Part shown: positions 681 through 29,784 of the stretch, piece after piece | Position numbering within the stretch: the first letter of the stretch is position 1 | Layout of the letters: the number at the start of each line of letters is the position of its first letter | Virus record (IMG/VR): IMGVR_UViG_3300035070_003918 | Coordinates: 1,462 to 65,461 of that record | Source of the DNA: a virus | Lineage: Duplodnaviria; Caudoviricetes | DNA length: 64,000 bases | Strand: one strand, 5' to 3' | Position numbers and translations under genes: made by a program | The notes under the pieces: model-generated | The model's input: the letters and a program-made list of their open reading frames with translations, nothing else | Told to the model about the DNA's origin: nothing | Databases searched by the model: none

Positions 681-1312
681 GGCTGCTCCTCATGCCTGCG
701 CCAGTACGGGTAGGTGATGCACGACATCCCGCGGTCCGCATCCGCTGAGACGCCGCTCACGTCATCGGGCAGGGGACGCAGAGGCATCCCATCGCGCAGC
801 ACCGGGAACCCCAGCCACGGCGCCACCTCTGCCACCTCCCATTGCCTCACCGCGCCGAGCCCCACCGCGCGCTTCTTGCCGACGTACGAGACGAGCCCAA
901 GCAGCGACTCGACCTCGGCTCGTTCCCCAACGCACCACCACGTCACGACGTCGTCGACCGCGTGGAACGTGGCCAGCGGGATCCGGTAGCTCTTCGTCAG
1001 CCCTGCCGTGATGTTGATCCGCCGCAACTTCGGCCCGGCCATGACCTGAGCCTCCGTCGTCGGGAAGCGACGATTGAGCCACCGCAACTCGGTCTCATCG
1101 ATCGCGCAGTGCCCGGCGCTCGCGAGGTGGAACCGCCCACACTCCGACCGCGCAACAGGGATCTCGATGGGCACTACCTCGCGCCGCGTGAGCGCCGGTT
1201 GCACCCCGTCGCGCATGGCCACGGCGTACGCGAGCAGGGCGTCCAGCATCACCGGCCGGTCCGGCATACACAGCGCCCCTCGGATATGCGCGCGCACCTC
1301 GAGCGGTCTCAT
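653..1312 (-). CDS. csf3: Type IV CRISPR Cas5-like RAMP (Csf3)
   Basis: ATG at 1312 overlaps the csf2 stop (ATGA); LDALLAYA N-terminal motif, G-loop YVGKKRAVGLGAV, RPLP and PYW motifs. Confidence 0.88.
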   Translation of the reverse strand: MRPLEVRAHIRGALCMPDRPVMLDALLAYAVAMRDGVQPALTRREVVPIEIPVARSECGRFHLASAGHCAIDETELRWLNRRFPTTEAQVMAGPKLRRINITAGLTKSYRIPLATFHAVDDVVTWWCVGERAEVESLLGLVSYVGKKRAVGLGAVRQWEVAEVAPWLGFPVLRDGMPLRPLPDDVSGVSADADRGMSCITYPYWRRHEEQPCFVPLTMC

Positions 1313-17466: not shown

Positions 17467-17848
17467 TCGCCGCCGCCGCCGCGTCCGCCCACGCCTTGGC
17501 GCCCGGATTGCCGAGCACCACCTCACCACCGACGGTCGTCGCGACGACCTGGTGAACGCGACCGAACAACGACCCGAGCAGCACGAGCAGCGTGCACACG
17601 CCGACGAGCGACGCCATCCCGCCCACCATCATCACAGGCTCGGATCGCGCCACCATCGCCTCGTTTGCCACGCAGCTGCCGCCACCGGTCATGAGAAGCG
17701 CGAACAGCCAGGTGCCGACGCCGTACCGCATCTTCTCCACGACCCGCACCCCGGTCACCGACGACAGCATCAGCGAAGCGCCATCGATCATGATCAGCGA
17801 CGGGGTAATCGTGACGCGCTCTGCCTTGAAGAGAACCTCCTCAGTCAC
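17438..17848 (-). CDS. Two-TM membrane protein (DUF6232-like)
   Basis: Beta-rich N-terminus (VTITPSLIMIDG) plus two hydrophobic helices. Confidence 0.6.
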   Translation of the reverse strand: MTEEVLFKAERVTITPSLIMIDGASLMLSSVTGVRVVEKMRYGVGTWLFALLMTGGGSCVANEAMVARSEPVMMVGGMASLVGVCTLLVLLGSLFGRVHQVVATTVGGEVVLGNPGAKAWADAAAAAIMSAVAQTR

Positions 17849-18459
17849 GGCTCGATCTCGACCGTGGCAGCGACGAACGAGCTCGCCGGGATCTCCGCCC
17901 CACCGATGATGGCGTTGGCCGTCGGCCCGATGTCGATGCAATCCGCCCCCGCCTTCGTGTACGTGGTGCCCGCGTACGGGCCCGCGACCGGGAACACGCG
18001 CACCGAGTCCCAACACGAGCCCGTCTGGGTCAGCAAGTGCGTTGGCAGCCCGCACGTGCCGTTGCTCGTGCCCACCGGGATCGTGCACGCCGCGTCGGCC
18101 CAGATCGTCGCGAACGCGTAGTTGACCGGCAGGCATCGCTGCTGGCCGTCGGACGCGCCACGCCACGCGCAGTCGATCCCGAGCTGCGAGTCGTAAAGCC
18201 CAGACGGAGTACGCGACCCGTCCGCGCCCACGAGCGTCTTGGCCTTGATCCGCTCCCCGCTCTCGAAGCCGCCGCCCGGGGTGCTCCCGCCGGTCGAGCT
18301 CGATCCGCCAGCATCCCCGCCGCCGGTCGCGCCCTCTCCGCCGTTCCCGCCCATCGAGTTCGCGGTGCTCGCCCCGGTTCCTCCGCTCGGGTCGGGCCCG
18401 ATCTCGTCCGAGCAACCTGCCAGCACCACCACCAACCCCACCATCGCCCAGCTCTTCAT
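17845..18459 (-). CDS. Lipoprotein with Gly-rich linker and Cys-rich domain
   Basis: Lipobox LAGC after a hydrophobic stretch; ESGERIKA...DGQQRCLP. Confidence 0.8.
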   Translation of the reverse strand: MKSWAMVGLVVVLAGCSDEIGPDPSGGTGASTANSMGGNGGEGATGGGDAGGSSSTGGSTPGGGFESGERIKAKTLVGADGSRTPSGLYDSQLGIDCAWRGASDGQQRCLPVNYAFATIWADAACTIPVGTSNGTCGLPTHLLTQTGSCWDSVRVFPVAGPYAGTTYTKAGADCIDIGPTANAIIGGAEIPASSFVAATVEIEP

Positions 18460-19025
18460 CGCGCCCCTCGCCTCTTTCCTGGCTTCTTCGCAGCCGCACG
18501 CGCGGCCTTTGCCTCATCGATCACGCTCTCGATTGTCCTGGTGTCTCCGACCGGCTCCGGCTCCGTCGATGGCGGAGACCCCTGAGGAAGACCGATCAAG
18601 ATCCGAAGCGCAAAGCTGGCAGCGTCGAAGAGGATCTCCTTGCTGATGCTCGTCGCTCCGACCGCGTCCAGCGCCCTCACGCCGGCCTCAAGCACGTGCT
18701 CAGGGAACCCGCGAGCCACCGCAGCGCGCGCGGCCTCGAAGCCGTCGAGCCGAGCCACGCGGGTGGTGGCGATCAACTCTCCGTCGAAGATCGCGGCCGG
18801 ATCGTAGCCGCCGAGCGCTGCCAGTCGCACCACGCACCTCGGGCCAACCCCGTGCCGTCCGTTGACGAACTTCCCGAAGTTGGTCTCGTGCACCTCGCCG
18901 AGCTCGGCCGCGAGCGAGCGCTTCGTGCGCCCGTCCACGAGCAGACCAAGAGCCACCGTGCGCGCGGCGTCCACCACCTTGGCCGGAAGCTTGGTCTTCG
19001 GTTCCGAAGCCATCTCGCGAGACAT
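18456..19025 (-). CDS. CI-like repressor (N-terminal HTH)
   Basis: TKRSLAAELG...FGKFVNG HTH-like motif; divergent from the Cro-like gene. Confidence 0.65.
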   Translation of the reverse strand: MSREMASEPKTKLPAKVVDAARTVALGLLVDGRTKRSLAAELGEVHETNFGKFVNGRHGVGPRCVVRLAALGGYDPAAIFDGELIATTRVARLDGFEAARAAVARGFPEHVLEAGVRALDAVGATSISKEILFDAASFALRILIGLPQGSPPSTEPEPVGDTRTIESVIDEAKAARAAAKKPGKRRGAR

Positions 19026-19052
19026 CCTACACCCCGTCTACGTCGCTCCAGC

Positions 19053-19118
19053 GCGGGACAGCGGTGTCCCGCACTTGACGCGACTAGCGCTAGCGCTAGT
19101 ATGGTGTCCCATGGGACA
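19053..19118 (+). promoter_or_regulatory. Rightward promoter (PR-like) and operator cluster
   Basis: TTGACG (19075)-16 nt-TAGTAT; perfect palindrome ACTAGCGCTAGCGCTAGT at 19083-19100; GGGACA/TGTCCC inverted repeats at 19053-19072 and 19105-19118. Confidence 0.8.
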
Positions 19119-19347
19119 GGTCACGAAGGGAGCGGCCATGCTCGGCGCATGGCTGCTCAAGAATGAGCGCACCAACCGCTGGCTCGCCGAAGAACTCGGG
19201 GTCGCCGAGTCGCAGGTCGGCAGGTGGCTGAGCGGCATGTGGAGGCCGCGTCAAGAGACGCTGCTGGCCATCGAGTCGATCACCGGGATCCCGGCGTCCG
19301 CGTGGCTCGACGAGCGTAAGCCTCTCAGGACGAGACGGGCCGCGTGA
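19111..19347 (+). CDS. Cro-like HTH (XRE family) protein
   Basis: WLAEELGVAESQVGRWLSG...P...LAIESITGIPASAW. Confidence 0.88.
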   Translation: MGQVTKGAAMLGAWLLKNERTNRWLAEELGVAESQVGRWLSGMWRPRQETLLAIESITGIPASAWLDERKPLRTRRAA

Positions 19348-19784
19348 GCGTCACCATCGACAGCGTCGCCCGTGGCCACGGTGGTCTCAGCATCACCTGC
19401 CACACGTCGCTCACGAGCCCGCGAGCGGACACGTGCGGTCCAGACGATGCGCTGTCCAAGCGCAGCTTCCCGGGTGTCGTGCAGGAGGTGGCGCGCGCTC
19501 TCTCGCTGGGAGTGGCGCTCTCGTCGCGCTCTCACTCGGTCGGCAGGTACCACGAGGCCACCTACTCGGGGCCTCCTCGCTGGGCGTGTATCGACCGCAC
19601 CGGCGCTGTCGTTCCCTGGCTCGAGGTCGAGGAACACTGCACGAGCCTCTACTCGCGCGAGCGCGTCGAGCGGCAGGACTGGTCGACCTTCGGCGCCGCT
19701 ATGGCCTTCGTCTGCGCTGTCGGTCGTGAGACCGCCCTGCGCGCTGTGGCTCGGCTGCACATCTCCTCTCTCGTCGCGAGGTGA
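19344..19784 (+). CDS. Hypothetical protein
   Basis: GTGA-coupled to the Cro-like gene. Confidence 0.5.
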   Translation: MSVTIDSVARGHGGLSITCHTSLTSPRADTCGPDDALSKRSFPGVVQEVARALSLGVALSSRSHSVGRYHEATYSGPPRWACIDRTGAVVPWLEVEEHCTSLYSRERVERQDWSTFGAAMAFVCAVGRETALRAVARLHISSLVAR

Positions 19785-19787
19785 CCC

Positions 19788-20087
19788 ATGGACCGCCCCG
19801 GCATCAGCAAGTGCAGCCCGAAGCGCGCTCAGGCGCATCAGAATCTCACGGAGTGGCTCGGGGAGTGGTGCGCCGAGAACGGCGTGTCCGTCCGCGAACT
19901 CGCTGGGGCGCTGGGCCTGACCTCGTCCGTCGCCGCCAAGAAGCTCTCTGGTGAGGCCTCGGTGGCGGGTATCGATCTTGTCCTGCTCTACCAATGGGCG
20001 GAGCGTCGCGGGGACAAGTTCATTCTCTCGTTTCGGGATGACGTGTGCCGCGGTGTTCGCGGCGATGACCTTCTTGCTCATGGGTGA
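19788..20087 (+). CDS. HTH protein (CII-like position)
   Basis: SVRELAGALGLTSSVAAKKLSGE. Confidence 0.7.
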   Translation: MDRPGISKCSPKRAQAHQNLTEWLGEWCAENGVSVRELAGALGLTSSVAAKKLSGEASVAGIDLVLLYQWAERRGDKFILSFRDDVCRGVRGDDLLAHG

Positions 20088-20130
20088 CAGCATGCGAATG
20101 GGGCGGACTCAGATCGATACGGGCTCAGCG

Positions 20131-20178
20131 GTTCAGCGATCAGTTCAGAGATCAGCACAGCGATCAGTTCAGCGAACA
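20131..20178 (+). repeat. Four tandem 12-nt repeats (consensus GTTCAGCGATCA)
   Basis: GTTCAGCGATCA GTTCAGAGATCA GCACAGCGATCA GTTCAGCGAACA, inside short ORF 20092..20310. Confidence 0.8.
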
Positions 20179-20309
20179 CACAAGATCGCCGCGCAATTCG
20201 ACCTGAACACCGGCGCTCGCGGGTGGACCATGGTCGCCGACTGCGACGTCCACCCCGACCGGCCGATCGGTCGGTGCCCCACGGGCCTTGGGTACGAGGT
20301 GCGCTCGTG

Positions 20310-20465
20310 ATGCACCTGACGCTGTACCACGTGGCTCGAGCCAAGCCGGCGAGCCGAAGGCGTCTCGCGCGTGCGCTCGGCCTCCGCGCGAACGCAACGA
20401 TCGCGCAGATCGTCCAGGCCGCCAATGCGCACATCGCGCCGACGCGCGGGGGCGGGTGGTCGTGA
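20310..20465 (+). CDS. Small basic protein
   Basis: TGATG coupling. Confidence 0.45.
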   Translation: MHLTLYHVARAKPASRRRLARALGLRANATIAQIVQAANAHIAPTRGGGWS

Positions 20466-20623
20466 CCGCCTGCCTCTACTTCGGCGCGCTCATGGTCGGC
20501 GCCATTCTCGCGCACCACGGGTCACCTTGGTTGGCCTTCGCGCTCGGGTGCGTCGTGCTCGTGACTCACGTGCTCTGTCGGTTGATCGATGTGCTGGATC
20601 CGGTGGAGGTCGACGATGAGTGA
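20462..20623 (+). CDS. Small membrane protein
   Basis: Two hydrophobic segments; GTGA coupling. Confidence 0.5.
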   Translation: MTACLYFGALMVGAILAHHGSPWLAFALGCVVLVTHVLCRLIDVLDPVEVDDE

Positions 20624-21053
20624 GGACAACGAGGACGGGGCGGACGTCGGCCAGCTCGAAGGGCTTCTGCCGATGGCGCCTATCAGCATCGCTCGGCTTG
20701 CTGAGTCGGTGGGCTCCGCTCCAGAGTCGAAGAACTTCCGGCGTGGCGTCTGGCAGGCCATCGAAGCCTACCGATCGCGAACCGGCATTCACCTCGTGCA
20801 GCGCGACGGGATGATCGAGGCGGTCACTCCCGAGGAGCAACTACGCGAGGCGAAGCGTCGGTTCGAGACGGCGCGCATCAGGATGCGACGCGGAGCCGAA
20901 ATCGCTAGCGGGTCAGCGACCCGCGATCCATCAATGGTCGCGAAGGCAGAGCGCCTTCTGGACCGCGAAGCGACGCGAGAGCCGACGTTGGCCAATGAGG
21001 CGCGTGAACTGCGCGCGGCCAACCTTCGCAAGCTCTTGCTCGGAAAGACTTAG
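20616..21053 (+). CDS. Hypothetical protein directly upstream of GGH-NN array 1
   Basis: GGAGG RBS; 145 aa; possible winged helix plus coiled coil. Confidence 0.7.
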   Translation: MSEDNEDGADVGQLEGLLPMAPISIARLAESVGSAPESKNFRRGVWQAIEAYRSRTGIHLVQRDGMIEAVTPEEQLREAKRRFETARIRMRRGAEIASGSATRDPSMVAKAERLLDREATREPTLANEARELRAANLRKLLLGKT

Positions 21054-21063
21054 GCAGGTCATT

Positions 21064-21148
21064 GGCGTGGCACTTCGCGGCAGGGACGTGCTCGGCACGG
21101 ATGGGCGTGGACCGGTTTGGCTTGGCGAGGCATGGACCCTTCAATGGG
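21064..21148 (+). repeat. Phased (GGH-NN)15 array 1 plus terminal hairpin; candidate guide ncRNA
   Basis: GGCGT GGCAC ttCGC GGCAG GGACG tGCTC GGCAC GGATG GGCGT GGACC GGTTT GGCTT GGCGA GGCAT GGACC, then CCC-TTCAAT-GGG. Confidence 0.85.
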
Positions 21149-21162
21149 CACTGGGAGAGACC

Positions 21163-21765
21163 ATGAAGATCATGAAGTTCAGGGTACGAATCGACAGCGA
21201 GCGACCCATCATCATCCAGAGCGATCGGCTGGTCGATCCACTCGACCCGATGAGCATCGAGAAGAGGCGGCTAGCCAAGCACAAGGACAAGGCGAGCGAG
21301 GCCTTCCAGGCAGACATTGGCAGGATCGAGTGGTTCGGCGCGCTCTACCTGGACGACGACTGCAAGCCGAGGCTCGCGATCCCGTGCGACAACATCTTGC
21401 GCGCGATGCGCGACGCCGCTGCGCGAGAGAAGCTCGGTGAGACGGTGAAGCGCGAGGTCACCATCGATCCTCCGCTGATCGACTTCCTGGACCACGGTGG
21501 CCCAAAGGATCTCGAGGCGATGTATGCCGACCCGAGGTTCGTTCTGCGCAAGTCGGTCGCTCAGCAGAAGGCGCGCGTGATGCGCGTACGCCCGCGTCTG
21601 CCCGTGTGGGCGCTCGAGTTCACCATGACCGTCGGTGGCGCACAGACGCTGACCGCGGACGACGTGAAGCGGATCCTGACGAACGCCGGCATGGTTGGGA
21701 TCGGCACGTGGCGACCTCGCTATGGTCACTTCAAGGTGACCAAGTTTGAGAAGGCCAAGGACTAG
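21163..21765 (+). CDS. Stand-alone RAMP/Cas7-like protein (200 aa)
   Basis: N-terminal strand FRVRIDSERPII, IPCDNILRAMRDAA, RVRPRLPVWALEF, G-loop AGMVGIGTWRPRYGHF; GGGAGAG RBS. Confidence 0.82.
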   Translation: MKIMKFRVRIDSERPIIIQSDRLVDPLDPMSIEKRRLAKHKDKASEAFQADIGRIEWFGALYLDDDCKPRLAIPCDNILRAMRDAAAREKLGETVKREVTIDPPLIDFLDHGGPKDLEAMYADPRFVLRKSVAQQKARVMRVRPRLPVWALEFTMTVGGAQTLTADDVKRILTNAGMVGIGTWRPRYGHFKVTKFEKAKD

Positions 21766-21779
21766 AAGTTTCGGCTCTG

Positions 21780-21877
21780 GGCTCGGCCGGGCGCGGCACG
21801 GCACGGCAGGGCGGGGCACGGAGCGGCCCGGCGGGGAGAGGCACAGCAAGGCAAGGCAAGGTCCCTTTCTACAGGGA
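21780..21877 (+). repeat. Phased (GGH-NN)17 array 2 plus terminal hairpin; candidate guide ncRNA
   Basis: GGCTC GGCCG GGCGC GGCAC GGCAC GGCAG GGCGG GGCAC GGAGC GGCCC GGCGG GGAGA GGCAC aGCAA GGCAA GGCAA GGTCC, then TCCCT-TTCTAC-AGGGA. Confidence 0.9.
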
Positions 21878-21888
21878 AGGTTTCGCGA

Positions 21889-22044
21889 ATGACTGACTTC
21901 GGCTGGTCTCTCCCATCGGTCCGCGAGCGGGCGCGCGAGTGCCAGCGGGTCGAGGTCATCAATGGGTCGCCGGTGCTGCTCGTCTTCGCGCTGCTCATCG
22001 GGGCGGCGCTGGGGTGCGTGTGTGGGGTTTGGATCAAAGGGTGA
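21889..22044 (+). CDS. Small single-TM protein (51 aa)
   Basis: Own translation MTDFGWSL...VLLVFALLIGAALGCVCGVWIKG. Confidence 0.45.
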   Translation: MTDFGWSLPSVRERARECQRVEVINGSPVLLVFALLIGAALGCVCGVWIKG

Positions 22045-22052
22045 GGTGAAGG

Positions 22053-22286
22053 ATGAGGCCGTACTTCCGAAAGTTGCCGCCGATCGTCGAGGTCCCGAAG
22101 GAGGCCCACGACGGGTACCACGTCGTCGTGAGCGGGAAGGTTGTGGCGTCGTCGTGGTGTCATGACTGCCACGCCGGGACCTGCGACTGCCTGCTGACGA
22201 TGGCGGCTCGAGCTCGACACCTCGGGGTCGGCGCCACCGTCCAGGGTCCGCTCGGGCGCGACCTCATCAAGCGGAGCGCCGCGTGA
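22053..22286 (+). CDS. Small Cys-containing protein
   Basis: CHDC...CDC; RBS present. Confidence 0.5.
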   Translation: MRPYFRKLPPIVEVPKEAHDGYHVVVSGKVVASSWCHDCHAGTCDCLLTMAARARHLGVGATVQGPLGRDLIKRSAA

Positions 22287-22678
22287 GCCCCACGGACGTT
22301 CTTCGGGCGGCTGCTGCGGCGATCCGAGCGCTGCCCGACCGTGACCTGCTCGAGCTCGCGCTGCGGGCGGATGGGCCGACGGAGCCGACGCCGTCGCAAC
22401 CGGCCGTGGCGTCGGCCCCTCCCACGGCCGCGCTCCGGCGGGAGGTCGCGACGAGCACCAAGCGCCCTACGCGGGCGGGCACGAGCAACCAGGAGTTCGT
22501 TGCACGCGCCCTCAGCGTCCTGCTGTCGAAGGCGGAGCCGGTGAGCTACGGAGCGGTGTCCAAGGCATCGGGCCTGTCCCAGCCTTCGACCCACCGCGCG
22601 CTCCAGACGCTCGTCGCGCTCGGCAAGGCGACGATGCGAAAGCAGGGTCACCGCTCGCTGTACGAGGCCAGGCGATGA
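22283..22678 (+). CDS. Winged-HTH DNA-binding protein
   Basis: VSYGAVSKASGLSQPSTHRALQTLVALG. Confidence 0.75.
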   Translation: MSPTDVLRAAAAAIRALPDRDLLELALRADGPTEPTPSQPAVASAPPTAALRREVATSTKRPTRAGTSNQEFVARALSVLLSKAEPVSYGAVSKASGLSQPSTHRALQTLVALGKATMRKQGHRSLYEARR

Positions 22679-23025
22679 AGCTGCAGGTCTCGTCGCCGGC
22701 CAGGACTCAGCCCATTCCGCCGACGCGCACGCTGCCGGTCATTCCGCACGACGTGGTGCCGACCATGCGCCCGCCGCTCGAGGTGACCAAGGTCTCTCGG
22801 CTGACCGACCGCTTCGTCTGCACCCGCTACGGCGGCCCCTGCGTCATCACGGCCGAGACGTGCATCAAGCGCCAGCGCGCCGTGCTCGCGCTGGACGACG
22901 ACCGGACTTCGACCGGTGGGTCCAAGACCTTCGGCTATGGCGGCAGCCCCACGGCCTCCGCCCAGTTCTACAACTGCAAGAAGTGCGACGACGGAAACCG
23001 CGTCGCGAGCAAGGTGAACTCGTGA
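22675..23025 (+). CDS. Hypothetical Cys-containing protein
   Basis: Coupled ORF. Confidence 0.55.
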   Translation: MKLQVSSPARTQPIPPTRTLPVIPHDVVPTMRPPLEVTKVSRLTDRFVCTRYGGPCVITAETCIKRQRAVLALDDDRTSTGGSKTFGYGGSPTASAQFYNCKKCDDGNRVASKVNS

Positions 23026-23294
23026 GCGCAACCAACTACTTCAAGACGTATTCGCCGTTCGGTCCGACCCACGGCGTCTTCCCCTTTGTCGACGGCGACT
23101 CGTCGTCGATCGAGACGGCGTGGTCCGCGGTCCTCGAGTGCAAGGGCCTGGCAGACCAGATGCGCTCGGGTCGTCGCGACGAGGACACCAGCTCCGACCG
23201 CGAGAAGCACGTCGTCCTCAGCCGGGTCGTGTCGTGCTGGACGAAGCCGAAGCTGTCGGGCCCGTGGTCTAACGTCGCGGCGGTGGCGTCATGA
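23022..23294 (+). CDS. Hypothetical protein
   Basis: GTGA-coupled. Confidence 0.5.
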   Translation: MSATNYFKTYSPFGPTHGVFPFVDGDSSSIETAWSAVLECKGLADQMRSGRRDEDTSSDREKHVVLSRVVSCWTKPKLSGPWSNVAAVAS

Positions 23295-23653
23295 TGCCGC
23301 CGCTCGACCGGGTCTGGGACGACGCCGACATGGCTCAGGCGATCCATCACGTCGCGCGCGAAGGATGGCGCGGCCCATCCTCGGCGCTGCTGTCTCGCAT
23401 CACGGGGTGGTCCGAGGAGGACGCTGCGCTCGAGCTCGAGCAGGAGGACCCCACCGAGAGGGTGTGCGCGTTCCTCTCGCTACTCGCGGTCCACTGCCAC
23501 CCGGACGCGCCGCTGATGCGCGTGACGCCCAAGCTCATCGCCGAGCTGACGGGGTGGCACCACGTCCGCGTCGAGCGCGCGCTCGTGGAGGCCGTGAGCC
23601 GAGGGCGCCGCGCGCTGTTTAGGATGGTGCCTGCCGAGGGGAGGCCCGCGTGA
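23291..23653 (+). CDS. Hypothetical protein (possible HTH)
   Basis: TPKLIAELTGWHHVRVERAL. Confidence 0.55.
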   Translation: MMPPLDRVWDDADMAQAIHHVAREGWRGPSSALLSRITGWSEEDAALELEQEDPTERVCAFLSLLAVHCHPDAPLMRVTPKLIAELTGWHHVRVERALVEAVSRGRRALFRMVPAEGRPA

Positions 23654-24237
23654 GCGCCGCATTCGACCTGGTCGCGTCGGCGCCAACGCCGCAGCGCGTG
23701 GAGCGCGCAGAGCTCGACTACTACCCAACGCCTGCGTGGTGCGTGGATGCGATCAAGCCGTTCCTATGTCCCGGGCGCTCAGTGCTCGACCCGGCCTGCG
23801 GGCAGGGGGAGTTGCTGATTCACTTCGGGGTGTCCGGCGAGACATCGCTGCTCGGCATTGAGCTGGACGGTTTGCGAGCCCTCGCGGCTGAGCGCATCGC
23901 CACCCAGCGCGTCATCGAAGCAGACGCCCTCGCCGTTGACTGGCCCAAGGTCGACCTCGTGATCTGCAACCCGCCCTTCTCGCTCTCGCTCGAGTTCGTC
24001 GAGAAGTCTCTCCAGCAGCAGCTGCCTCACACGACGCACGCCTTCCTGCTGCGGCTGTCGTTCCTCGAGTCGCGCGAGCGACGCGCGCTTCACAAGCTGC
24101 ATCCGAGCGACGTCTACGTCCTCTCCGAGCGGCCGAAGTTCAGGCCCAACCGTCACGGCAAGATGGCCACCGACTCGATCACATGCGCGTGGTTCGTGTG
24201 GGGTCCTGGGCGCGGCGGAAGGTGGAGCGTCCTGTGA
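23650..24237 (+). CDS. Orphan amino-DNA methyltransferase (N6-adenine type)
   Basis: DYYPTP, VLDPACGQG, ICNPPFS. Confidence 0.9.
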   Translation: MSAAFDLVASAPTPQRVERAELDYYPTPAWCVDAIKPFLCPGRSVLDPACGQGELLIHFGVSGETSLLGIELDGLRALAAERIATQRVIEADALAVDWPKVDLVICNPPFSLSLEFVEKSLQQQLPHTTHAFLLRLSFLESRERRALHKLHPSDVYVLSERPKFRPNRHGKMATDSITCAWFVWGPGRGGRWSVL

Positions 24238-25088
24238 GCGCGTCTCTCGCTACCTGGCTTTACATCGCAGCTGGCTCCGTTGTGGCGCTGTGCTGGCTGC
24301 GCCACGTGCGCGCTATCGGTCTGGTGCTCGTCACGGTCGCGGTGGGAGCCCTCTGGCCTCTGTTCGCGGTGGCTGTTGCGCTCCACATGCTCGTCGAGAT
24401 CGCGAAGGACCGGGTCCGATGAGCAACCCCATCGAACAGGCCACGCTCGCGCTCTACGCGGCGGACGACGGTACGAAGTCCGTGTTCGGCAGGTGCAACA
24501 ACGAGCACTGCAGCACCATCGCGCAGGAGTGCCATCCGTGGGCGTGCTGTCACGCAATGGCCGACGCGACCCGCCGACAGCGTGCGGCGGAGAACGGCTT
24601 GCTGGCCGCCGTACGTGACGCGAGGCCGCGGTCATGACGCCCTTCGGCTATCCCGTGCTCCCGTTCCTGGTCGGCGAGGTGAGGGTTGCTCAGGCCAAGC
24701 AGAGCAGGGCAAGGTGGCAATCCGACTTCAACTTGGCCGAGTTCACCGCAGCGGAGCTAGAGTTCCTGGCCAGGATCTGCCACCTGTTCAACTTCATCGA
24801 GCAGGGTATCAAGTGAGCGTCGCCAAGCTCCACCCGATGGGCGACACGTCGGTCACCGAGGAGTTCCGCTGTCGCGTCTACGCCGACGTGGAGACGGAGC
24901 ACGCGCGCTTCGAGCGTCTGCGCTCTGAGGCGCTCGCCGCCGCTCAGTCGCCCGACGGCCTCATCGAGGCACCGGCCTACGACAAGGCGATCGAGGCCCT
25001 CATCTATGAGGGCCTTCTCAACCCGGTGCCAGAGCGCGTACCAGCCGAAGGCGGCGGGTACATGCACCGGTGGAGGGTGAGGCCGTGA
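24234..25088 (+). CDS. Four small coupled hypothetical genes (24234-24422, 24419-24637, 24634-24816, 24813-25088)
   Basis: ATGA/GTGA overlaps. Confidence 0.5.
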
Positions 25089-25615
25089 TCTCGATCGGTA
25101 TCGACTGCGGCTCGGACAAGACCGGGTTCGCGTGCATCGAGATGACCCATCACGGGCCGGTCCTCACCGCCGGCGCGCACGAGCCGATCGAGTGGCTCAG
25201 AGGAAGGAGCCCCACAGCCCTCTACGCCATCGAGCAGATCCAGGGCTACGCCTTCAACCCGGCCCGCGTGAAGCACCTGGTCGAGACCGCACGCAACGAG
25301 GGACGCGCGCTCGAGATGCTCCACAACCGCGACGTCGTGGTCTTCACCGCCCGCGAGGCTCGCGGTGAGTTCTGCCGCACGCCGCGGGCGAGCGACAACC
25401 AAGTGCGCATCGTCGTCGAGGCGCTGGTCACCATCGTGCCCAAACTGAAGGCGACGACCCGTGTGCACGTCTACGACGCCGCGCTGGTGGCGCTGCTGGC
25501 CCTCCGACGACGTGGGCACGCGCTCAAGCTGCCCAACGACGCCGAGGTGCGGCTGCTCAGCTTGCAGGCGCTGGAGAACGAGAAGCGCGCGGCGAAGAAG
25601 AGGGCTGTCGCGTGA
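25085..25615 (+). CDS. RuvC-like Holliday junction resolvase
   Basis: IGIDCGSDKTGFA, AIEQ, HVYDAALVA. Confidence 0.8.
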   Translation: MISIGIDCGSDKTGFACIEMTHHGPVLTAGAHEPIEWLRGRSPTALYAIEQIQGYAFNPARVKHLVETARNEGRALEMLHNRDVVVFTAREARGEFCRTPRASDNQVRIVVEALVTIVPKLKATTRVHVYDAALVALLALRRRGHALKLPNDAEVRLLSLQALENEKRAAKKRAVA

Positions 25616-27165
25616 CAGATGTGGCGGAGCCGATTGGGCGAGAAGGAGAGACGTCTATGGAGTTGAGGAAGCATCAGCGTGAGGCCGTGGCGGTCGCTCG
25701 CGACATCGTCGCCGGAACCTTCGCGCGCAAGGTCGTCACCGCGAAGGTGACCCCCGGCGGCGGGAAGACTCTCATGGCGGCGCTGTTCGCGCGCGAACTC
25801 TTCGACGCCGGTGCCATCGACCTCGTGATCTTCGTGACGCCGCGTGACTCTCTGCGCACCCAGGTCCGCAACGAGTTCTGCAACCTGAAGCTGGGGCTGA
25901 GGCACTACCTCGTGGAGCGCGGAGGGGACAAGAAGCAGCAACAGTCGCTGTTTGGAGAAGGCTCGACCTTCGGCGGCTTCGTGATCACCTACCACGAGAT
26001 CGCGACCGCGCAGGCGACCGTGCTGAAGTGGATGAAGGGCAAGAGGGTCTTGATCATCCTCGACGAGTGCCACCACATCACCGCGAGGCCGTCGGAAGAG
26101 TCAGGGGACGGCGCTGATTGGCACGAGAAGTCGCAGTTGCTCGTGGACGCTGCCGCAAGGGTGCTCGCCATGTCGGGCACCATGGCGCGCGACAAGTCTA
26201 CCGAGCCGATATCGTTCATTCAGTACTCCAATGACGGGCTTCCGGCCCTGGACATCGCCTACAACCGCTATGACGCGCTGGTCGATGAGGCGATCGTTCG
26301 AGTGGAGTTCAAGCGCATCGACGCGAAGGCGAACTACCAGAGCGACGACAAGGTCGTCTCAATCGAGCTGAGCAAGGCTGGCAAGCTCCACGCGAAGCGT
26401 GCGCTGTCCTCCGTCGTGGACATCGAGTCAACCTACACCGGCGAGGTAGTCGAGGGCGCTGTCGACGAGTGGCTCGCGTACCGGCGCGAGGTGAATGGGC
26501 ACAGCAAGATGATCGTCATCGCTGCCACGCAGAACGCTGCGCGAGGGATCCGCACGCTGATGCAGGCGCACCTTCGCGGAGCCTTCGAGGTGGCGCTCGC
26601 GATCTCCGACGAAGGGCAGAAGGCGAAGAAGGCGATCCGCCGCTTTCGCGGCGACCCGGCTATTACGATCCTGGTCACGGTCGGGATGGCCTATGAGGGG
26701 CTCGACGTCCCAAACGTCACCCATATCGTGTGCCTCACGAGAACGCGTTCGCGCCCGTGGCTCGAGCAGGCCTTCGCGCGAGCCACCCGGTTCGACCGCT
26801 CATGCGGTCTCACGTGGTCGGAGCAGGCCGCTACCATTTTCGTCCCGGACGATGGGGAGATGCGCAGCATCATCACCGCGATCCAGGACGAGCAGGCCTC
26901 GGCCGTGCACGAGAAGGGCATTGGTCCAGGCTTCCCGCCTCGTCGGGTGCGCTCCTCGTTCGAGACTCTCGGTGCCGAGAAGACGGACGTGTCGATCACC
27001 GGAGATAGGCACTACACGAAGGAGGAGAGCCTGTTGATGGAGCGTCTTGTGCGCGAGTACGAAGGCACGCGCTTCTGGTCTCCTGAGGCGAAGCTCAAGC
27101 TGGTGGTTGGGATGGGCTGGATTGGGCGGGCGAAGGTCGTCGGTCGAACGGGCTCCCATGGTTGA
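25612..27165 (+). CDS. SF2 DExH helicase (ResIII/UvsW-like)
   Basis: LRKHQREA, TPGGGKT, ILDECHH, MSGT, EGLDVP, QAFARATR. Confidence 0.9.
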   Translation: MTDVAEPIGREGETSMELRKHQREAVAVARDIVAGTFARKVVTAKVTPGGGKTLMAALFARELFDAGAIDLVIFVTPRDSLRTQVRNEFCNLKLGLRHYLVERGGDKKQQQSLFGEGSTFGGFVITYHEIATAQATVLKWMKGKRVLIILDECHHITARPSEESGDGADWHEKSQLLVDAAARVLAMSGTMARDKSTEPISFIQYSNDGLPALDIAYNRYDALVDEAIVRVEFKRIDAKANYQSDDKVVSIELSKAGKLHAKRALSSVVDIESTYTGEVVEGAVDEWLAYRREVNGHSKMIVIAATQNAARGIRTLMQAHLRGAFEVALAISDEGQKAKKAIRRFRGDPAITILVTVGMAYEGLDVPNVTHIVCLTRTRSRPWLEQAFARATRFDRSCGLTWSEQAATIFVPDDGEMRSIITAIQDEQASAVHEKGIGPGFPPRRVRSSFETLGAEKTDVSITGDRHYTKEESLLMERLVREYEGTRFWSPEAKLKLVVGMGWIGRAKVVGRTGSHG

Positions 27166-29040: not shown

Positions 29041-29784
29041 ATGACCGGGCCCAAGTACAGCGAATCCGTGGTCGACCTGGCGACGGTGATCGAGAGGGCT
29101 CAGCGAGCCGCCGGCGCGGTGGCGTCGAGCCTGGACGAGTCGGCGAGGGCCGAGGGCGAGCGGTCCACGGCGGCACGCGATGAGGCGAGGCAGCAGGCGG
29201 CGTCGGCACGCCGCGCGGCTCAGCGGGAGGCGTCGCTCGAGACGATCCCTGTCCGGCTTCGGTGGGCTCGGCTCGGCGGCCAGTGGCCCGAGGCGGTCGA
29301 CGCGAAGGCCGTCTCCGCGCTCGAGGTCATGGGCGCAGGCCAGGGGCGAGGGGCGAACCCGCTCCTGACGCTGCACGGGCCTCCTGGGTCCGGCAAGACC
29401 TCCGCCGCGGTGGCGGTGATGCGGTCCAGGCTCGAGGCGGCCAAGCTGCCCCTGGGTCTGTTCGTGACGGCGAGCGACCTCGTCACGGCGACGAAGGCGA
29501 CCCCGCTAGGGCAGGCGGTCGAGCTCGTGGAGCGAGCCAAGACGATCCCGGCCCTGGTGCTGGACGACGTGGGCCAGGAGCCGAGCGGGGAGTGGAACCG
29601 GGTCGTGGTCGAGGTTCTCCACGAGCGGCACGCCCAGCAGCGCTGGACCGTGGTCACGACCTACTACGACGTCAGCGCGGGCTCGAAGGACATCACCACG
29701 ATGGAGGCCCGGTACGGCGGAGGGCTTGTCCGTCGCGTGGCCGAGTGCCGTCACGTGGCCTTCCGGGTGAGGGGGAAGCGATGA
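29041..29784 (+). CDS. DnaC/IstB-like AAA+ helicase loader
   Basis: HGPPGSGKT, LVLDDVGQE, ERH...TVVTT. Confidence 0.88.
   Translation: MTGPKYSESVVDLATVIERAQRAAGAVASSLDESARAEGERSTAARDEARQQAASARRAAQREASLETIPVRLRWARLGGQWPEAVDAKAVSALEVMGAGQGRGANPLLTLHGPPGSGKTSAAVAVMRSRLEAAKLPLGLFVTASDLVTATKATPLGQAVELVERAKTIPALVLDDVGQEPSGEWNRVVVEVLHERHAQQRWTVVTTYYDVSAGSKDITTMEARYGGGLVRRVAECRHVAFRVRGKR

Follow-up and report, generated by a model that had tools for sequence, protein, structure and literature searches.

Two arrays of five-base units and the gene between them are the subject of this report. They lie in a 64,000-base stretch of DNA, hereafter the window, which covers positions 1,462 to 65,461 of the IMG/VR virus record IMGVR_UViG_3300035070_003918 and derives from an uncultivated, high-GC, sheath-tailed phage. 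Array 2, on the plus strand at 21780-21864, consists of 17 five-base units, 16 of which carry GG and 13 GGC. Array 1, on the plus strand at 21064-21138, comprises 15 units, 13 of them with GG. The vipr gene (21163-21765, plus strand), which has the arrays on either side, codes for a minimal RAMP protein of 200 amino acids (aa). VIPR systems are described as consisting of the minimal RAMP protein Vipr, guide RNAs (vrRNAs) of 9-16 GGY/NN units with a constant 3' tail and usually a vap gene (10.64898/2026.04.26.720920). Very probably, array 2 is such a vrRNA gene, array 1 a second and different one, and the protein encoded between them Vipr.

Units 1-9 of array 2 read GGCTC GGCCG GGCGC GGCAC GGCAC GGCAG GGCGG GGCAC GGAGC, units 10-17 read GGCCC GGCGG GGAGA GGCAC AGCAA GGCAA GGCAA GGTCC, and the last two bases of each unit (NN) give the string TC CG GC AC AC AG GG AC GC CC GG GA AC AA AA AA CC. 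An initial annotation of this DNA, made from the letters alone, had reported these 17 units and this exact NN string, both of which were confirmed letter by letter. The span it assigned to the array, 21780-21877, stands for the repeat as far as 21864; positions 21865-21877 contain no repeat and belong to the 3' side of the hairpin described below. The NN string of array 1 is GT AC GC AG CG TC AC TG GT CC TT TT GA AT CC. Whatever the offset, it coincides with that of array 2 at 14 of 30 positions at most, and the two arrays are therefore unrelated, as had been proposed.

The pattern of array 2 is far beyond chance. Across the window the GG count per 17 period-5 slots has a mean of 1.4, with a best value of 8 on the opposite strand. 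In 200 first-order Markov simulations of the 64-kb window, the highest count over both strands was 7.9 on average and in no case above 10, compared to the 16 observed in array 2. Only arrays 1 and 2 reach at least 7 units in the entire 65,461-base contig; candidate extra arrays at 29255-29299 (plus strand) and 832-866 (minus strand) were rejected as weak 6-unit GG runs that look like chance. A coding reading of array 2 was also rejected, since a period of 5 is no codon multiple and the spanning open reading frame (ORF, 21746-21892) contains no repeat peptide. A search of 19000-24000 against Rfam was negative at E<=1, as was one of nine related loci at E<=0.1. The predicted folding of the two array RNAs is at the level of shuffled sequences (z 0.33 and 0.09), which fits a protein-held, unstructured guide.

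The protein encoded between the arrays was compared with PDB chain 36pp_D, 'SUSP1 Vipr protein', which it matches over the full length (phmmer, E 8.6e-18, residues 6-193 versus 4-188); a profile of 106 family sequences matches the same chain with E 4.8e-59. The family counts 1929 representative clusters at E<=1e-3, the window Vipr matches phrog_4652 (function unknown) with E 3.2e-30, and Pfam holds no family for it. By tblastn of 50,697 phage records a Vipr homologue was found in 127, including Felixounavirus phages of E. coli and Salmonella and phages of Gordonia, Pseudomonas and Mycobacterium. One source labels a homologue with 51% identity (P0014) as 'histone H3/H4', a name that looks spurious and automatic. 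Foldseek of the AlphaFold (AF2) model of the window Vipr (pLDDT 97, pTM 0.90) retrieved 98 PDB chains at E<=1e-3, with Csm3, type VII Cas7 and Cmr subunits first and the best structural matches at E 1.5e-6 to 1e-4 and TM about 0.5. The model thus predicts a Cas7/Csm3-like minimal RAMP fold with a single RRM core, a glycine-rich loop and a thumb. The G-loop reads GIGTWRPRYG (179-188), and a beta-hairpin (127-146) bears the near-invariant R143, conserved in 105 of the 106 family sequences. Kept among the RNA-contact residues of SUSP1 are R138 (R143 in the window Vipr), W178 (W183), R179 (R184) and K33 (R35).

Arrays of the same kind accompany vipr in other phages. All seven reference phage loci with a Vipr homologue, from phages of four host genera (Gordonia, Mycobacterium, Pseudomonas and Escherichia), contain one to five GG(C/T)NN arrays of 7-17 units beside the gene and on its strand, and no opposite-strand arrays were found in these seven loci. 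Because this strand-specific association of array and gene is conserved over four host genera, a chance repeat is ruled out. Two close metagenomic relatives were retrieved, L009 (Vipr 63% identical; upstream half of the locus) and L045 (69% identical; downstream half), and both have an array at the expected place as far as each contig reaches. Scans of IMG/VR with the single protein and the clade alignment gave no other close relatives, nor did the species genomes; the metagenomes gave these two. The NN strings of the window, L009 and L045, the latter being the only two close relatives available, are unrelated save at the 3' end. Over 22 arrays with 286 units from ten loci, position 1 is G in 94%, position 2 is G in 92% and position 3 is a pyrimidine (Y) in 86% of units; the figures for positions 1 and 2 are partly circular, as the arrays were found by GG, whereas position 3 played no part in detection. 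Positions 4 and 5 are near-uniform, with all 16 dinucleotides present. Judged from these sequences, GGY is fixed and NN free among related loci. With a Vipr homologue flanked by GGY/NN arrays, the locus agrees with the sequence-level definition of VIPR.

More distant metagenomic Vipr loci look different: among 78 of them (L010-L088, 24-37% identical over the best segment) none has a same-strand run of at least 6 GG per 10 period-5 slots, and an opposite-strand GG run lies near the gene in 17 of the 78 (e.g. L014 1160-1209 and L015 1344-1413). This suggests a clade with vrRNAs convergent to vipr, or with non-GG units.

Natural variation of array 2 became visible in a 1588-base contig of sequencing run X1, which corresponds to window positions 20600-21766 (9 differences) joined to 21850-22136 (12 differences), with flank identities of 99% and 96%. 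The 83 bases at 21767-21849 are replaced in it by 71 other letters. The exchangeable part of array 2 (21767-21849, plus strand) comprises a 13-base leader (21767-21779) and units 1-14 (21780-21849). The part retained in X1 begins exactly at GGCAA GGCAA GGTCC, the constant 3' handle of the array (21850-21864, plus strand), and the hairpin is kept as well. Turnover of the guide part thus takes the form of a cassette exchange within fixed borders, and not of slippage or scattered substitution. A right border of the cassette is indicated by contigs of runs X2 and X4, in which unrelated sequence stands immediately before 21889. Array 1 was kept in contigs of two other sequencing runs, the sole change inside being 21111 A>G at a Y position: the X1 contig differs at this one base, and a contig of run X3, from a different study, has array 1 unchanged. 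The 51-aa membrane-like and 77-aa Cys/His-rich ORFs at 21889-22288 adjoin unrelated upstream sequence in other metagenomic contigs, and they vary far more across runs than vipr (25 differences over 247 bases in one X1 contig).

A constant handle at the end of array 2 had been suspected by the initial annotation in the run AGCAA GGCAA GGCAA. Its two GGCAA units were indeed kept in X1, together with GGTCC and the hairpin, and recur in similar form in L045, whose downstream array ends GGCAA GGCAA GGACC followed by CTTCAATGGGC; the AGCAA unit lies within the swapped part. The penultimate unit is GGCAT, GGCAA or GGCAG in 10 of the 22 arrays. The tail of array 1 contains a 16-base string, GGACCCTTCAATGGGC, that recurs without a difference in the tail of the L045 downstream array. 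When used as a query against IMG/VR, GGACCCTTCAATGGGC gave two matches, which were discarded, both lying within coding sequence without an array.

These observations bear on the reading of array 2 as a slippage-prone pentanucleotide microsatellite or a DNA element (G-quadruplex, iterons) with no role as RNA. Tandem Repeats Finder does call array 2 a repeat of period 5, 10 or 20, and the array is G-rich on one strand. Its units are however no copies of each other, NN being near-random while GGY is fixed, the coding-strand architecture recurs by the homologous gene in seven of seven reference loci over four host genera, and the variation seen is a cassette swap with no change in unit number. The initial annotation had named unit-number slippage with random substitutions over the five positions as the expectation for a simple repeat; this was not seen, GG and Y being fixed and NN different. 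We consider such a microsatellite or DNA element extremely improbable.

Both arrays run into the ribosome binding region of the next gene. The tail of array 1 (21137-21159, plus strand) forms a hairpin of CCC (21137-21139) with GGG (21146-21148), followed by GGGAGAG (21153-21159, plus strand), the Shine-Dalgarno-like run of vipr. In the tail of array 2 a hairpin (21862-21880, plus strand) pairs UCCCU at 21862-21866 with AGGGA at 21873-21877 in both the minimum free energy and the centroid structure, and overlaps GGGAAGG (21874-21880, plus strand), the Shine-Dalgarno-like run of the ORF that starts with ATG at 21889. A small 3' hairpin of 3-5 bp is predicted in four of four clade arrays, with stems CCC/GGG (twice), UCCCU/AGGGA and CUCU/GGAG; four tail sequences are too small a sample to judge covariation. 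A search of 20300-22400 found no sigma-70-like promoter or intrinsic terminator.

With their tails running into the Shine-Dalgarno-like runs of vipr and of the 51-aa ORF, and with no sigma-70-like promoter or intrinsic terminator between the arrays and the flanking genes, the arrays could be viewed as cis-acting, Vipr-binding translational operators on the mRNA, where filament assembly would only tune expression; that exact-seed scans found no target is in line with this as well. An operator, however, needs neither a free NN code nor two unrelated NN strings, nor the replacement of the NN part between borders, and the same kind of array acts as a guide in trans in SUSP1 (10.64898/2026.04.26.720920), although both roles could coexist. 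As the sole function of the arrays, a cis operator seems improbable to us.

What a VIPR guide does has been worked out in other phages. VIPR systems are reported to be mostly phage-borne and to silence competing elements; the arrays were shown experimentally to be guide RNAs, the NN bases of which pair with double-stranded DNA (dsDNA) while every third base is skipped (10.64898/2026.04.26.720920). One protomer sits on each unit in a helical filament, for which the residues holding G1, G2 and Y3 have been named (10.64898/2026.04.26.720927). In two later preprints VIPR arrays already figure as an established class. The proposal of the initial annotation that the locus carries two guides with a fixed GG scaffold and variable NN is supported by the Vipr homology, the GGY/NN arrays and these published guide experiments. 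By homology with the SUSP1 and P. fulva systems, the Vipr protomers of the window would bind one per 5-nt unit into a helical filament. Each GGY would be flipped out and held by the G-loop, the thumb and the RRM, the two N bases of the unit would be free to pair with dsDNA with every third base skipped (NNxNNx...), and the bound complex would block transcription of a competing mobile element. Array 2 would be transcribed, processed to an RNA of ~105 nt and loaded by Vipr, with the one-base-skip rule holding, and its target may be a rival phage, a satellite or a prophage.

A more elaborate scenario, which we regard as unlikely, would have the vrRNA module of this clade minimal and tied to gene expression. 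Each guide would be excised from the operon mRNA or work inside it, capped by no more than a 3-5 bp hairpin in or next to the ribosome binding site of the following gene (vipr, then the downstream membrane ORF), and filament loading would feed back on Vipr synthesis. Guides would be gained by recombination between two fixed anchors, the stop codon of vipr and the GGCAA-GGCAA handle, a natural route to new specificities by cassette exchange, and the first G would be read by a Q/T instead of an H/D pocket.

Likeness to the type II VIPR systems of Escherichia phage SUSP1 and a Pseudomonas fulva prophage extends over full-length Vipr homology, the RAMP fold, the G-loop, the phage-borne location and the lack of a self-target, as well as same-strand GGY/NN arrays on both sides of vipr (one upstream and at least one downstream) with a constant 3' end. 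The window differs from SUSP1 in a Vipr that is ~28% identical to the Felixounavirus (SUSP1-like) homologues and has Q19/T182 for H17/D177, in a single downstream vrRNA of 17 units, in the lack of a downstream vap1-like gene with a weak upstream candidate only, and in a tail formed by a 3-5 bp hairpin that merges into the next ribosome site, without a pseudoknot.

Some of these differences, along with other observations, weigh against a VIPR guide at 21780-21864. GGY is broken in three of the 17 units of array 2 (units 9 and 12 have GGA, unit 14 AGC), and the unit count is one over the 9-16 range of the preprint. Between the array and the start codon that follows there are ~24 bases at most, too few for a SUSP1-type pseudoknot. 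The residues that read G1 in SUSP1, H17 and D177, are both replaced in the window Vipr, and D177A abolishes SUSP1 function (10.64898/2026.04.26.720927). A homologue of the vap proteins of the reference loci was not detected in the contig by tblastn (best E 0.06). Exact 9-10-unit seed scans did not find a natural target, their 11 seed hits having extensions at chance level. The mechanism is drawn from preprints on relatives that are only about 28% identical. Finally, that the 71 replacement letters of X1 form another GGYNN array is an inference. As to the G1 pair, it co-varies in the family: of the 106 sequences 72 have H/D and 12 have Q/T, Q/T is present in 16 of 16 members of the window's own clade, and G at position 1 is still present in the window arrays despite Q19/T182.

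The broken units and the lack of a target in the exact-seed scans would also suit a decaying vrRNA, or a decoy that diverts the Vipr of a rival phage; solo and decoy vrRNAs have been reported in SUSP1 satellites and VIPR-null phages (10.64898/2026.10.15.759431). Yet 16 of the 17 GG units are intact, the handle and the hairpin are conserved and array 2 adjoins an intact vipr, while internal degeneracy is described as frequent in working vrRNAs in the preprint that also lists stand-alone vipr genes (10.64898/2026.04.26.720920). Decay or a decoy role of array 2 is in our view very improbable. The window arrays share with solo vrRNAs the GGYNN array and tail as a self-contained, exchangeable module, but they adjoin an intact vipr and are not orphans. 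Among the loci compared, no rival vipr or vrRNA matches the window guides. The VIPR guide described above also resembles the guides of class 1 CRISPR systems (Cas7/Csm3 filaments), in which there is likewise one RAMP subunit per fixed guide step and a thumb that flips bases regularly. The step is 5 nt in VIPR (3 sequestered, 2 pairing) as opposed to 6 nt in class 1 CRISPR (1 flipped, 5 pairing), and the window guide is hard-coded in the genome and exchanged as a cassette, without a repeat-spacer array or adaptation genes. Tandem Repeats Finder found no CRISPR repeat-spacer array (repeats of about 25-40 nt, period 60-79) in the whole window (no period >24). In the 14 ORFs at 17848-27162 Pfam found HTH, methyltransferase, RuvC-like and helicase domains and no Cas families such as the large and small subunits, Cas5/Cas6 or Cas1/Cas2, the rest of the window lying outside that scan.

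Targets were searched with the pattern proposed in the initial annotation, which equals the published NN reading with a one-base skip. There is no self-target in the 65,461-base contig: the best one-skip matches are 22/34 (65%) for array 2 and 18/30 (60%) for array 1, values that the 0- and 2-skip controls reach as well and that fall short of the 80% threshold of the preprint. The earlier spot check that had reported no self-target thus holds for the whole contig, where 22/34 is background, and this agrees with the reported lack of self-targeting. Elsewhere, five scans of IMG/VR (9-unit seeds) and one of 185,579 species genomes (10-unit seed) were run with exact seeds and are far from exhaustive. 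Array 2 gave five IMG/VR matches with units 1-9, none with units 5-13 and two with units 3-11; array 1 gave one with units 1-9 and none with units 5-13. The species-genome seed (array 2 units 3-12) had three matches, approximately chance by a rough composition-based estimate, one of them within a cysS-like gene of a Dehalococcoidia metagenome-assembled genome. The best-looking match is in L100, where 22 of 26 positions agree over 13 units, 18 of them fixed by the seed and four of the eight others matching; the site covers codons 11-24, in wobble phase, of a gene that by the look of its translation may be a tail gene. L097 agrees at 23 of 26 positions over 13 units. The seed fixes 18-20 positions in these two loci and the rest are at chance level. 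Between the window, L009 and L045 no cross-targeting was found, maxima being at the level of shuffled guides except in loci fetched by the seeds.

Two related viral contigs of 66% GC, L091 and L092, each contain two separate sites that agree with array 2 over its first 8-9 units and not beyond (L091 6376-6425 and 4655-4704, both minus strand; L092 142-191 and 1857-1906). The site pairs agree at 18/18 and 14-15/16 NN positions and are judged to be chance, yet unexplained. One of the sites lies just 5' of a 388-aa ORF that by eye resembles a major capsid gene. The second site, 15/16 over units 1-8 (rough p 0.02 for 50 kb), was rejected as chance, being non-coding and without extension.

Upstream of array 1 lies a 145-aa ORF (20616-21053, plus strand; longest ORF start at 20589), a candidate vap-like gene with a winged-helix-like product. 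Its homologues (86%, 70% and 51% identity) begin at the Met of 20616, and it is syntenic with vipr in L009, where it stands directly 5' of array and vipr, and in two other contigs. Against a vap profile of six reference proteins it ranks first of 741 contig ORFs with a non-significant E of 0.53, and hhalign of the vap and upstream-ORF alignments gives E 0.031 across matching regions. In structure, its Atlas model is similar to viral hypothetical proteins of 139-166 aa (TM 0.60-0.69), with a weak likeness to ScpB/TrmB winged-helix proteins (TM ~0.36). It is thus possibly a divergent vap-like gene. The genes just 3' of vipr in the seven reference loci belong to one vap family, for the seven proteins of which Pfam gave no match. 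If the upstream ORF were truly vap, the gene order would be vap-vrRNA-vipr-vrRNA here versus vrRNA-vipr-vap-vrRNA in the reference loci. A 131-aa IclR/MarR-type HTH protein (22283-22678) was dismissed as vap, with E 0.082 over 25 columns only.

The module lies ~1.8 kb downstream of a gene for an HTH_3/CII-like regulator (19111-19344), which faces a divergent 189-aa ORF (18459-19025) without a Pfam hit. Downstream of the module are genes for a methyltransferase, a RuvC-like nuclease and a helicase, and the window, part of an IMG/VR virus record, has genes for terminase, portal, major head, tail sheath and tape measure proteins. It is represented, whole or in part, in 20 DNA metagenome runs, none of them on record as RNA, which belong to 12 studies; four runs (wastewater, runoff, river) were compared in detail, the other 16 holding small shares. 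In other phages the surroundings vary. In LittleE (L004) a vipr-vap-vrRNA module separates the tail sheath gene from the tape measure gene, and in Pseudomonas phage Medea1 (L005) the module, together with regulators of its own, stands between tail assembly K/L and I/J; in both it looks like an inserted moron and not a part of the early region.

The VIPR loci of actinophages, namely Gordonia phages Trine and MakoManhole and Mycobacterium phages LittleE and prophiBWHA-1, have behind each array a tail with a fold like the acceptor stem plus T-arm of a tRNA (L003 3200-3258 and 3309-3367, L001 2974-3030, L004 3690-3745, L007 2358-2420). The T-arm-like hairpin combines a stem of 6-7 bp, which varies among loci, with a loop of 7 nt within GGTTCGAnTCC. 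ARAGORN scores one of these tails as tRNA-like (L003 3295-3363), Rfam none. Host tRNA-processing enzymes might cut the actinophage arrays into single vrRNAs; in their main texts, three VIPR preprints nowhere use the word 'tRNA'. Annotated genes also run across arrays: the N-terminal ~100 residues of gp40 of Gordonia phage Trine (L003 3097-3900) are the translation of two arrays with their tails, and gp35 of LittleE (L004 2057-2446) is annotated on the opposite strand across two arrays. Both annotations are probably artefacts.

Array 2 is most likely a genuine element of an already known kind, which leaves the picture of VIPR unchanged. The present analysis shows that a vrRNA is recognisable from sequence alone and places a probably functional VIPR locus in an uncultivated phage. 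It adds a natural guide replacement with base-level borders between near-identical phages, and a Vipr subgroup in which both G1-reading residues are changed together. Together these results bear on the turnover of VIPR specificity and on variation of the GGY pocket.

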